Origin: Waddliaceae bacterium
GTDB taxonomy: Bacteria; Chlamydiota; Chlamydiia; Chlamydiales; Waddliaceae
NCBI GenBank assembly: GCA_963724325.1
Contig: CAVRUH010000001.1
Coordinates: 640,001-704,000 of the forward strand
Direction: 5' to 3'
Length of the DNA: 64,000 nucleotides
Positions 32,062 to 32,973 of this stretch are shown in pieces; within the stretch, counting starts at the first letter, position 1; the number at the start of each line of letters is the position of its first letter. The translations under genes were made by a program, and so were the position numbers. The notes below the pieces were generated by a model. The model made no database searches, was not told the origin of the DNA, and was given only the letters and a program-made list of their open reading frames with translations.

Positions 32062-32121
32062 TTATTGCGCCTGCCGCGCAAGGATAAGAACTAAAGATGA
32101 AATAAGTATTTGTGTTTTCAT
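32062..32121 (-). CDS. Putative leaderless leader peptide MKTQILISSLVLILARQAQ
   Basis: TTGCAC-N17-TATAGT-N7-ATG; C-terminus shared with 32795-32929. Confidence 0.5.
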   Translation of the reverse strand: MKTQILISSLVLILARQAQ

Positions 32122-32264
32122 GAGCAACACTATATCAGAAAGAACATTTACGTGCAAACTGTTTTTTTTTGGATGAACCTTGACCAAAAATATAACAGTG
32201 TTATATGCAAGGGCCCACAGTTGGGATTATGTGTGAGGGAGATAGGACTCCCTCACTACACAGT

Positions 32265-32684
32265 TTACTTCCATAATGAGAATTTTCTTGTTAACTCAGA
32301 AATCTGATTCCAATCTCCGAATAAAACAATGCCATAATAAATGAGCTCTTCATCTTTGGTTTGTTTTGTTCGTTCGATCTGTTCCAGGTAAGTGCCTACC
32401 GTCATGGTATTGGTAAAATCCACAAATTTAATCCCTGCCTCTATGGCGGCCTGTCTTAAACCTCTAATTTTATTAGAATTTGCTTTTAATACCATGAATG
32501 GCATTTCTGATATGTTTGGATGGCTTCCACCATCTGCGTCGATATAGTTTGTTAGTCTTAGGGGGTCTTTTCCAATATCTGATCCAAACCCTATGCACAT
32601 ATGCGCCAAAGCATTCATGATAATGCCTGGTTCTATTTTTTCATTCATTACCGCAACTAATTTATTCGTGAATGATGCTGTCAT
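32265..32684 (-). CDS. DUF2000 family protein (PTH2-like fold)
   Basis: MNALAH...YIDADGGSH..IS..PF.VLKA...YYGIVLFG. Confidence 0.75.
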   Translation of the reverse strand: MTASFTNKLVAVMNEKIEPGIIMNALAHMCIGFGSDIGKDPLRLTNYIDADGGSHPNISEMPFMVLKANSNKIRGLRQAAIEAGIKFVDFTNTMTVGTYLEQIERTKQTKDEELIYYGIVLFGDWNQISELTRKFSLWK

Positions 32685-32794
32685 ATTTCCTCCTTATTTG
32701 ATGATGACATAAAGTAATCCTTTGTTATTAAATTTACAAATAGGTCCTATCATTTTTGGGACCTTGAATATAAAATAGATGTATAGGAATTAAT

Positions 32795-32929
32795 TTATTG
32801 TTGCGCCTGCGGCGCAAGGACGAGAAGAAGTGCAACAATAGAACAAGTCAAAAAAGTGGTGGTATCGTCGATTATTCGACAAGCACCACTTATTTTCCAA
32901 TGGATATTTGAATGTTCTATTGCTTTCAT
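32795..32929 (-). CDS. Putative leaderless leader peptide (44 aa, ends ALLLVLAPQAQQ)
   Basis: TTGCAT-N17-TACAAT-N7-ATG; manual translation. Confidence 0.5.
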   Translation of the reverse strand: MKAIEHSNIHWKISGACRIIDDTTTFLTCSIVALLLVLAPQAQQ

Positions 32930-32973
32930 GGAGGCTATTGTACTAAATCTCCGTTTAATATGCAAGATATTTT

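Follow-up and report, generated by a model that had tools for sequence, protein, structure and literature searches.

Leucine-run leaders ahead of a DUF2000 gene and an MFS gene in a Waddliaceae bacterium: a conserved module and candidate leaderless translational attenuator

What do two short, similar reading frames do immediately ahead of a DUF2000 gene and an MFS transporter gene in a Waddliaceae bacterium? The stretch of DNA analysed here, which we call the window, comprises 64,000 nucleotides, and its minus strand carries, in this order, proB, proA, proC, csaA, leader 1, DUF2000, leader 2, and MFS. Pfam confirms DUF2000 (E=6.5e-39), MFS_1, tRNA_bind/CsaA, and the proC/proA/proB families in the window, and contigs of three DNA sequencing runs are identical, letter for letter, to pieces of it; a look-up of sequencing runs listed no RNA data set that contains it. 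A preliminary description of the locus had reported two minus-strand upstream ORFs (uORFs), a promoter-like site before each, no SD ahead of either ATG, and a shared hairpin, all of which a direct reading bears out: no purine-rich run precedes the two ATGs, and both ORFs carry, in a common frame, the sequence TCCTTGCGC(C/G)GCAGGCGCAA, which folds as a GC hairpin. The features of leader 1 and its gene are the following.

32937..32965, minus strand: predicted promoter 1, sigma66/70-like, with -35 TTGCAT (32965-32960), 17 nt, and -10 TACAAT (32942-32937), a geometry shared by the homologues.
32795..32929, minus strand: uORF1, 44 codons, ending in ALLLVLAPQAQQ and a stop, predicted to be leaderless, with its ATG 7 nt after the -10.
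32816..32830, minus strand: leucine control codons of uORF1 (LLLVL), with a predicted second role as anti-SD.
32801..32817, minus strand: GC hairpin of leader 1, 7 bp with a 3-nt loop, the stop lying 3 nt beyond.
32765..32794, minus strand: G-poor, pyrimidine-rich spacer of leader 1, with a Y-ACA-Y motif at 32786-32779.
32742..32764, minus strand: second hairpin of leader 1, of the GGTCC...GGACC type, at the usual offset of +52 to +61.
32681..32722, minus strand: SD (32722-32718) and 9-codon mini-ORF MSSSNKEEI (32710-32681), whose TGA overlaps the DUF2000 ATG.
32265..32684, minus strand: DUF2000 gene, 139 aa, Pth2 fold (Pfam, AlphaFold model), with SD AAGGAGG at 32695-32689.
32233..32256, no strand assigned: 9-bp hairpin 3' of DUF2000, without a U tract on the minus strand and not called by the terminator scan.

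Leader 2 and its gene follow the same plan.

32129..32157, minus strand: predicted promoter 2, with -35 TTGCAC (32157-32152), 17 nt, and -10 TATAGT (32134-32129).
32062..32121, minus strand: uORF2, 19 codons, MKTQILISSLVLILARQAQ and a stop, predicted to be leaderless, with its ATG 7 nt after the -10.
32080..32094, minus strand: control codons of uORF2 (LVLIL), which contain TTATCCTT.
32065..32081, minus strand: GC hairpin of leader 2, 6 bp with a 5-nt loop, directly followed by the stop; alternative partner at 32041-32034.
32019..32061, minus strand: C-rich, G-poor spacer of leader 2, with a CTCACAT motif at 32048-32042.
30789..32018, minus strand: SD AAGGA (32018-32014) and MFS transporter gene (32006-30789, 405 aa; Pfam MFS_1).

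A motif search of the 2,374,560-base (2.37-Mb) genome, a check that the preliminary description had named beforehand, found the 17-nt hairpin core exactly twice at 0 or 1 mismatch, both times in the window and nowhere dispersed; two further matches at 2 mismatches are members of another repeat. With only these two copies, the element is not a dispersed REP, and the reading as a dispersed repeat is ruled out, the covariance-model matches at E<=5 being three, with the third inside a gene. An unrelated palindromic repeat of about 45 nt does occur in many dispersed copies, on contigs C1 (about 1077700-1083800), C6, C11, and C10, where it is clustered. The terminator scan found 0 intrinsic terminators in 31900-33400, and no Rfam family rose above threshold in the window, where the best was a sub-threshold GcvB (16.7 vs 42 bits), or in 10 related loci; a classical transcription attenuator was rejected on these two results. 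The generic promoter scan gave 8 sites vs 6.1 +/- 2.9 in shuffles, which is not above chance, and listed only promoter 2 of the window promoters; the support for both comes from their conservation in homologous leaders. Elsewhere in the window, on the plus strand, lie a DUF4258 and HTH/MqsA-like pair (29932-30719), likely a toxin-antitoxin module, convergent with the MFS gene; a 914-aa protein (37407-40151) that has an adenosine-deaminase domain and matches SLOG weakly; and a 125-aa ORF with a weak Pfam ATG8 match (40346-40723; E=2.6e-4, below the cut-off), possibly a eukaryote-like ubiquitin-fold protein.

The named close homologues of the DUF2000 and MFS proteins come from Parachlamydiales, Rhabdochlamydia, and Parachlamydia. 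The window MFS has matches in 67 of 250 genomes of Chlamydiota, its orthologues being 60-73% identical, and among the best 30 MFS loci a hairpin leader is present at 24 (window included) and lacking at 6. Leaders of the window type also precede a DUF2000 gene in genome G014 and an SNF-family transporter gene in G355, and one was found before only 1 of 15 other loci of DUF2000 homologues. A covariance model trained on 27 leaders (from the 24 MFS loci, plus others) matched in 22 of 150 genomes, in 0 of 27 genomes of the small-genome family f36, and at 25 of 59 metagenome MFS loci, where the DNA 5' of the gene is short in several cases; 6 of 27 further loci without a model match (L250, L260, L273, L277, L281, and L285) pass a codon-agnostic layout scan. 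Distant chlamydial MFS paralogues (27-31% identity) had the leader in 0 of the 19 examined out of 26, two with less than 50 nt upstream. An 18-nt pattern scan of the genome collection, for which 123 loci were read (120 from the scan), gave chance matches, with no convincing leader among the matches listed, and a strict window-type pattern gave 21 matches in 19 of 401 genomes, only 4 of them leader-like. Once near-identical rows, edge cases, and one row without a downstream start had been dropped, 55 leaders formed the working set, 47 of them with a promoter-anchored start. Two loci look different in the place of the leader: about 150 nt 5' of the MFS start, L179 has a possible Phe-run uORF ending FFHPIFFTFFF, which may be a chance frame in U-rich DNA and has a weak promoter score, and L177 has a long inverted repeat, perhaps a MITE-like insertion.

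Across the leaders, the promoter takes the form TTG-N16/18-TAnnnT, whose TTG at -35 and TAnnnT at -10 agree with the C. pneumoniae consensus in the accessible text of PMC3333780. The gap between the -10 and the uORF start is 7 nt in 41 of 47 leaders (5-8 allowed), and an SD-like run precedes the uORF in 0 of 47. Promoter scores of at least 10 were reached by 15 of 21 anchored training leaders (27 examined) and by 21 of 29 independent ones, vs 0.9% of random ATGs and 1.5% in AT-rich DNA, a contrast that is overstated because the 47 leaders were selected by score and several candidate starts were tried for each; the fixed 7-nt gap is not forced by this selection. In the frame set by the promoter-adjacent start, Leu occupies 83 of 126 pre-hairpin codons in 21 leaders (shuffled 26.5 +/- 4.7) and 178 of 282 in 47 leaders (shuffled 59.9 +/- 6.8). 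All six Leu codons occur in the runs, CTT being the most frequent, and the N-terminal part of the uORF varies freely, with lengths of 14 to 45 codons. A GC hairpin of 4-9 bp follows in 55 of 55 leaders, a count to be read with the covariance model's preference for hairpin-bearing rows in mind, and the stop lies directly after the stem, at offset +17, in 25 of 47. Pair counting on a MAFFT alignment gave 77% paired cells vs 74.4% in shuffles, with a covariation score matched by 189 of 500 shuffles; this weak alignment-wide signal is partly due to short-loop rows being out of register. The leader module is real and conserved, and it is apparently undescribed.

Does the run serve as a sensor? When the bacterium's own genome was scanned for the layout regardless of which codons fill the run, 4 of 2338 ORF starts came out: both leaders of the window, a Thr-run leader, and a likely false match, apparently antisense to a tRNA gene. 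An earlier version of the scan had returned 4 of 1863 starts, with another likely false match. The third leader is the following.

Contig C5, 166190..166252, plus strand: Thr-run leader MYLAVYLLVSTTTNTTGFRR and a stop (L341), before an SDF-family symporter gene (C5:166311-167474) of the same genome.

The SDF family, which we take to include the Ser/Thr importer SstT, is represented by this symporter in 21 of 160 genomes, and a hairpin leader is present at 15 of the 21 loci and absent at 6. In these 15 leaders, three of which have few Thr, Thr occupies 50 of 90 run codons (shuffled 10.5 +/- 2.9). A further version emerged from the class of one alphaproteobacterial genome, in which 18 of 251 genomes gave 24 MFS loci: 18 are without a hairpin leader, 2 have Leu-run leaders, and 4 have Ile-run leaders (L312, L313, L319, and L320), whose stop lies in the hairpin loop and whose MFS clade is 34-36% identical. 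The Thr and Ile modules keep the same RNA layout, including the Y-ACA-Y motif common to all three versions, with unrelated peptides. That the layout is retained from one transporter family to the next, with a different run in each, speaks most strongly for amino-acid sensing, and on these sequence comparisons the module very probably senses an amino acid through its codon run. Since Ile and Val codons are present in the window runs, the window copies may respond to branched-chain amino acids more broadly. The leader pair of the preliminary description stands, and the sister modules, like the SD complementarity of the Leu run set out below, were absent from it. Ahead of more distant MFS homologues, including that of Legionella adelaidensis, Leu- or L/V/I-rich uORFs are also seen (L258:1040-1170, L266:2370-2495, and L295:1280-1495), followed by a different, possibly pseudoknotted structure and nearer in look to the LEU element discussed below.

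As to how such sensing would reach the gene, the reading we prefer, at a probability of roughly 60%, is a leaderless codon-sensing translational attenuator with SD sequestration as its output. Judging from the promoter geometry, transcription would start at the ATG of the uORF, and the conservation of the frame suggests that the uORF is translated by a ribosome starting at the mRNA 5' end. With ample leucine, the ribosome would finish at the stop in or beside the hairpin and leave; in the predicted fold the CU-rich run then pairs with the SD, enclosing hairpin and spacer in a loop, and the gene would stay off. A shortage of charged tRNA-Leu would instead leave the ribosome stalled on the run, covering both the run and the 5' arm of the hairpin; the SD would open and the gene would be switched on. 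Polar Rho termination may follow the translational repression.

In the window, the pairing can be traced base by base. The TTATCCTT of the uORF2 run is an exact 8-nt complement of the MFS SD region AAGGATAA (duplex of -9.5 kcal/mol), and the uORF1 run forms duplexes of -10.0 kcal/mol with the DUF2000 SD and -6.7 with the remnant SD of the mini-ORF. Whole-leader folding gives SD-to-run pairing of 0.97 for leader 2, where a longer helix involving the spacer is preferred to the short hairpin in the ensemble, and 0.69 for leader 1, both window SDs thus being predicted to be sequestered; with a modelled ribosome block of the run, SD opening in the window copies rises from 0.02 to 0.50 and from 0.30 to 0.79. 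Of the 47 leaders, just 16 have a predicted SD-to-run pairing above 0.5, and just 12 gain more than 0.2 in SD opening when a stall is modelled. A leader's own run-SD duplex beats that with swapped partners in the 27 training leaders (p=0.019; 0.0004 for 22 dereplicated), in the 29 independent leaders, selected with a model whose training leaders were CU-rich (p=0.0024, and 0.0089 once re-anchored), and in the 55 combined (p=0.0009), with an effect that is small, about 0.8 kcal/mol, and a significance overstated by a permutation that treats related loci as independent. Upstream and CDS controls for the Leu runs gave p=0.14-0.71. In the Thr family, the covariation with the SD reached p=0.0001 before the hairpin and 0.0003 after it, vs 0.65 in the upstream control and 0.023 in the CDS control. 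No covariation was found between spacer and pre-SD region (p=0.18-0.36). That CU-rich Leu codons pair with any purine-rich SD weakens the pairing argument, and the universal G-poor spacer and the Y-ACA-Y motif are left unexplained by SD sequestration.

The composition of the spacer fits Rho loading, which makes a transcriptional output possible. Leucine would be sensed in the same way, with premature transcription termination as the result: after the ribosome leaves, Rho would load on the CU-rich run and the G-poor spacer and stop RNA polymerase near the second hairpin, and a stalled ribosome would block the loading. An unstructured C>G loading site after the uORF stop is indeed present, C exceeding G in the spacer of 48 of 55 leaders vs 41% of 886 background windows (pyrimidine 65% vs 50%) and in 15 of 15 Thr leaders. 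The Y-ACA-Y motif sits at a fixed position near +32 to +35 in 31 of 55 leaders (shuffled 9.4), and a second hairpin of -4 kcal/mol or better is found in 27 of 55, mostly near +55 to +61. The lack of an intrinsic terminator and of strong predicted SD pairing in most leaders also suits this reading, and Rho acts in Chlamydia according to the accessible text of PMC7755916. However, the spacer measures only about 40 nt and is richer in U than in C, the footprint of a ribosome stalled on the run would leave part of the site uncovered, the SD covaries in two families, and the rho gene of this very assembly (C5:229301-230550, minus strand) is split over three frames by several indels, which may be an assembly error or a real loss or pseudogene. 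On balance, we consider a Rho-dependent output unlikely.

The unpaired Y-ACA-Y motif conserved in the Leu, Thr, and Ile modules could also belong to an RNA element that binds a protein or is processed, in which the uORF would be incidental or only a translation enhancer (reinitiation or standby), and protein binding to the LEU element is argued in the portions of PMC1262725 available to us. This is improbable for leaders in which each transporter family has its own run, all synonymous codons are used, and the run lies in frame with a start at the predicted +1.

In the preliminary description, L(I/V)LAxQAQ-stop was instead taken as the motif of a ribosome-stalling module; spelled out as a model, the nascent peptide would arrest the ribosome on reaching the stop codon, either unaided or together with a ligand. 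No tail is more frequent than QAQ (17 of 47 leaders), the hydrophobic stretch would occupy the exit tunnel, and changes in loop length keep the stop in frame (3 nt in the window, 6 nt in G014). Yet among those 47 leaders, LAxQAQ occurs only in the two window copies, other uORFs ending in AAQ, TAE, SAH, VAD, or STII, and in 9 of 47, from several lineages, the stop lies inside the hairpin. The invariant Ala codon is the GC of the hairpin, and changes at its third base are matched in the 5' arm (U-A in 17 rows, C-G in 3). The varied tails and this tracking of the 5' arm make the arrest reading weak, and the Thr and Ile modules retain the RNA layout without any related peptide, which renders it quite improbable. 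The comparison of peptide and base pairing in relatives that had been suggested comes out on one side: tails vary in the 47 leaders, and it is the leucine codons and the base pairing that persist, not the peptide tail. Of the earlier proposal of a leaderless uORF attenuation module common to the DUF2000 and MFS genes, the module survives as a set of conserved predicted leaders and the arrest-peptide motif does not. That the leaders sense translation stress in general (slow hydrophobic or NUN codons, antibiotics) and not one amino acid is very improbable given a Leu:Phe ratio of ten to one and separate Thr and Ile versions, even though T predominates at the second position of the last four run codons, Phe, Val, Ile, and Ser fill 67 of 282 run positions, and DUF2000 and an AlaX-like neighbour suggest tRNA quality control.

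Among known systems, the E. coli leuL, ilvL, and thrL are classical leader-peptide transcription attenuators, a type to which the S. aureus ilv-leu attenuator reportedly belongs as well. As in these, the control codons end a short leader ORF and presumably match the amino acid handled through the downstream gene; contrary to them, the chlamydial leaders have no U-tract terminator or antiterminator and their uORF lacks an SD. With nascent-peptide arrest leaders, such as TnaC, SecM, and the RAPP type, they have in common a short uORF with a recurring C-terminus before the stop, but here the C-terminal residues are not conserved and can be removed by a stop inside the hairpin. By analogy, the leaders studied here would work most like the mycobacterial polycysteine leaderless sORFs (Ms5788A), for which attenuation was shown by reporters in the accessible text of bioRxiv 10.1101/834739, and the predicted LEU element of actinobacterial leuA, as presented in the portions of PMC1262725 available to us; a mechanism of this sort is already known, so that the surprise is limited. 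As far as that bioRxiv text goes, the polycysteine sORFs have what is predicted for the present leaders, namely a leaderless short ORF, a C-terminal control-codon run pairing with a downstream SD, and a translation-level output with possible polarity, and they share with them the lack of an intrinsic terminator and several loci per genome. They differ in their amino acid (Cys there; Leu, Thr, or Ile here), in their long and stable duplex, which is short (5-15 bp) and AT-rich in the chlamydial leaders, and in that a small GC hairpin holds the stop here; the chlamydial targets are putative importers and a Pth2-fold protein. For the LEU element, too, a basal stem is predicted between the Leu run of the leader ORF and the SD of the regulated gene, but there the pseudoknot is conserved, whereas the chlamydial form has one or two plain hairpins, and the element precedes leuA, not MFS, DUF2000, and carrier genes (PMC1262725, same portions; a comparison through Rfam gave no sequence match). 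An identity with the LEU element was rejected, the basal stem holding no pseudoknot and the leaders not lying upstream of leuA. The same source cites experiments in which changed Leu codons of the Streptomyces leuA leader did not behave as in classical attenuation.

Within the chlamydiae, the accessible text of PMC7755916 describes codon-run amino-acid sensing for the YtgCR WWW motif of Chlamydia trachomatis, which differs in lying within a long gene and acting through a repressor, and regards the annotated trpL of chlamydiae as atypical and lacking validation. In C. pneumoniae, leaderless mRNAs are an exception (5 of 437 in the available text of PMC3333780). We found no description of the leader module in Rfam or in the literature accessible without subscription or supplements, although Lopatovskaya et al. 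2010 (cited in PMC4833913) may list such leaders; none appears in the accessible portions of PMC7755916, PMC4833913, PMC8632094, PMC2965389, PMC5449765, PMC12960579, PMC13236596, or bioRxiv 10.1101/2022.06.01.494293.

How did a DUF2000 gene come to lie behind such a leader? The usual order among relatives is leader-MFS-DUF2000, and DUF2000 adjoins 13 of 127 MFS loci, downstream in 12. The spacer of leader 1 is shared with the MFS leader of a genome of the same genus (G001), and the mini-ORF MSSSNKEEI is likely the remnant of a deleted MFS gene. From this spacer match, together with the SD and nine-codon ORF overlapping the DUF2000 start, we infer that leader 1 once served an MFS gene, the loss of which placed DUF2000 under the leader's control. 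A tie to proBAC-csaA, as proposed earlier, did not extend to relatives, with proC or csaA within the 1.5-2.5 kb flanks at 0 of 127 related MFS loci.

The targets of the leaders comprise MFS, SNF, and mitochondrial-carrier-type transporters, the SDF symporter, and the Pth2-fold DUF2000. The AlphaFold model of the latter (pLDDT 83) matches Atu0240 (2gax) with a TM of 0.76 and archaeal Pth2 hydrolases with a TM of about 0.5, in line with the Pth2-fold assignment made beforehand; a PDB sequence search with DUF2000 gave nothing significant, and the term DUF2000 was not found in a literature search. Homologues of this gene (L013, L014, L015, L010, and L002) adjoin PhzF-like, presumably YbaK-like, and AlaX-like genes or follow a GntR-like regulator, labels read from translations of which the AlaX-like one alone was confirmed by domain scan, and these neighbours suggest a part in tRNA quality control. 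For the window MFS, the domain search gave no specific family assignment beyond MFS_1. Its closest named record is an MFS of Legionella adelaidensis (33.6% identity), which has an L/V/I-rich uORF with a different downstream structure, and the window MFS may be akin to the Legionella Pht-type amino-acid importers. The covariance model added as new targets a Pfam mitochondrial carrier (L215) and proteins of 247-257 aa, among which one has a predicted structure similar to mitochondrial carriers (TM 0.74). Leu-type leaders precede such mitochondrial-carrier-type proteins of chlamydiae at L207, L211, L212, L213, L215, and L216, with DUF2000 following at two, and suggest an amino-acid cargo for them. 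On the preferred attenuator reading, the MFS product would import the amino acid and DUF2000 would recycle peptidyl- or misacylated tRNA. In the bacterium's own genome (84.6% complete), ilvC was not found, and leuB and thrC were found only below the cut-off. BrnQ is present there and in 193 of 250 genomes searched, so that branched-chain import need not depend on the MFS alone, and a mutual exclusion of MFS with BrnQ was rejected.

Taken more broadly, we give about even odds to the view that modular, codon-swappable leaderless attenuators (Leu, Thr, and Ile), built of a +1 start, a control run, a stop-bearing hairpin, and a Y-ACA-Y spacer, travel with nutrient importers among host-dependent bacteria and serve the environmental chlamydiae as a gauge of the host's amino-acid supply. 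If so, the codon run of each leader would tell what an orphan transporter carries, bacterial proteins of the mitochondrial-carrier type among them, and DUF2000 would be a starvation-induced tRNA-recycling enzyme. The predicted imports are leucine or branched-chain amino acids for the MFS clade and for some mitochondrial-carrier-type proteins, threonine for the SDF clade, and isoleucine for the distant MFS clade, and DUF2000 is predicted to act when ribosomes starve; the leaders are short enough to be tested in E. coli or in a cell-free system, so that the organism need not be cultured. Transcription factors are few in chlamydiae, and no validated leader-peptide attenuator was found for them in the accessible parts of the literature. 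A conserved family of leaderless attenuators would show how chlamydial symbionts sense the nutrients of their hosts.
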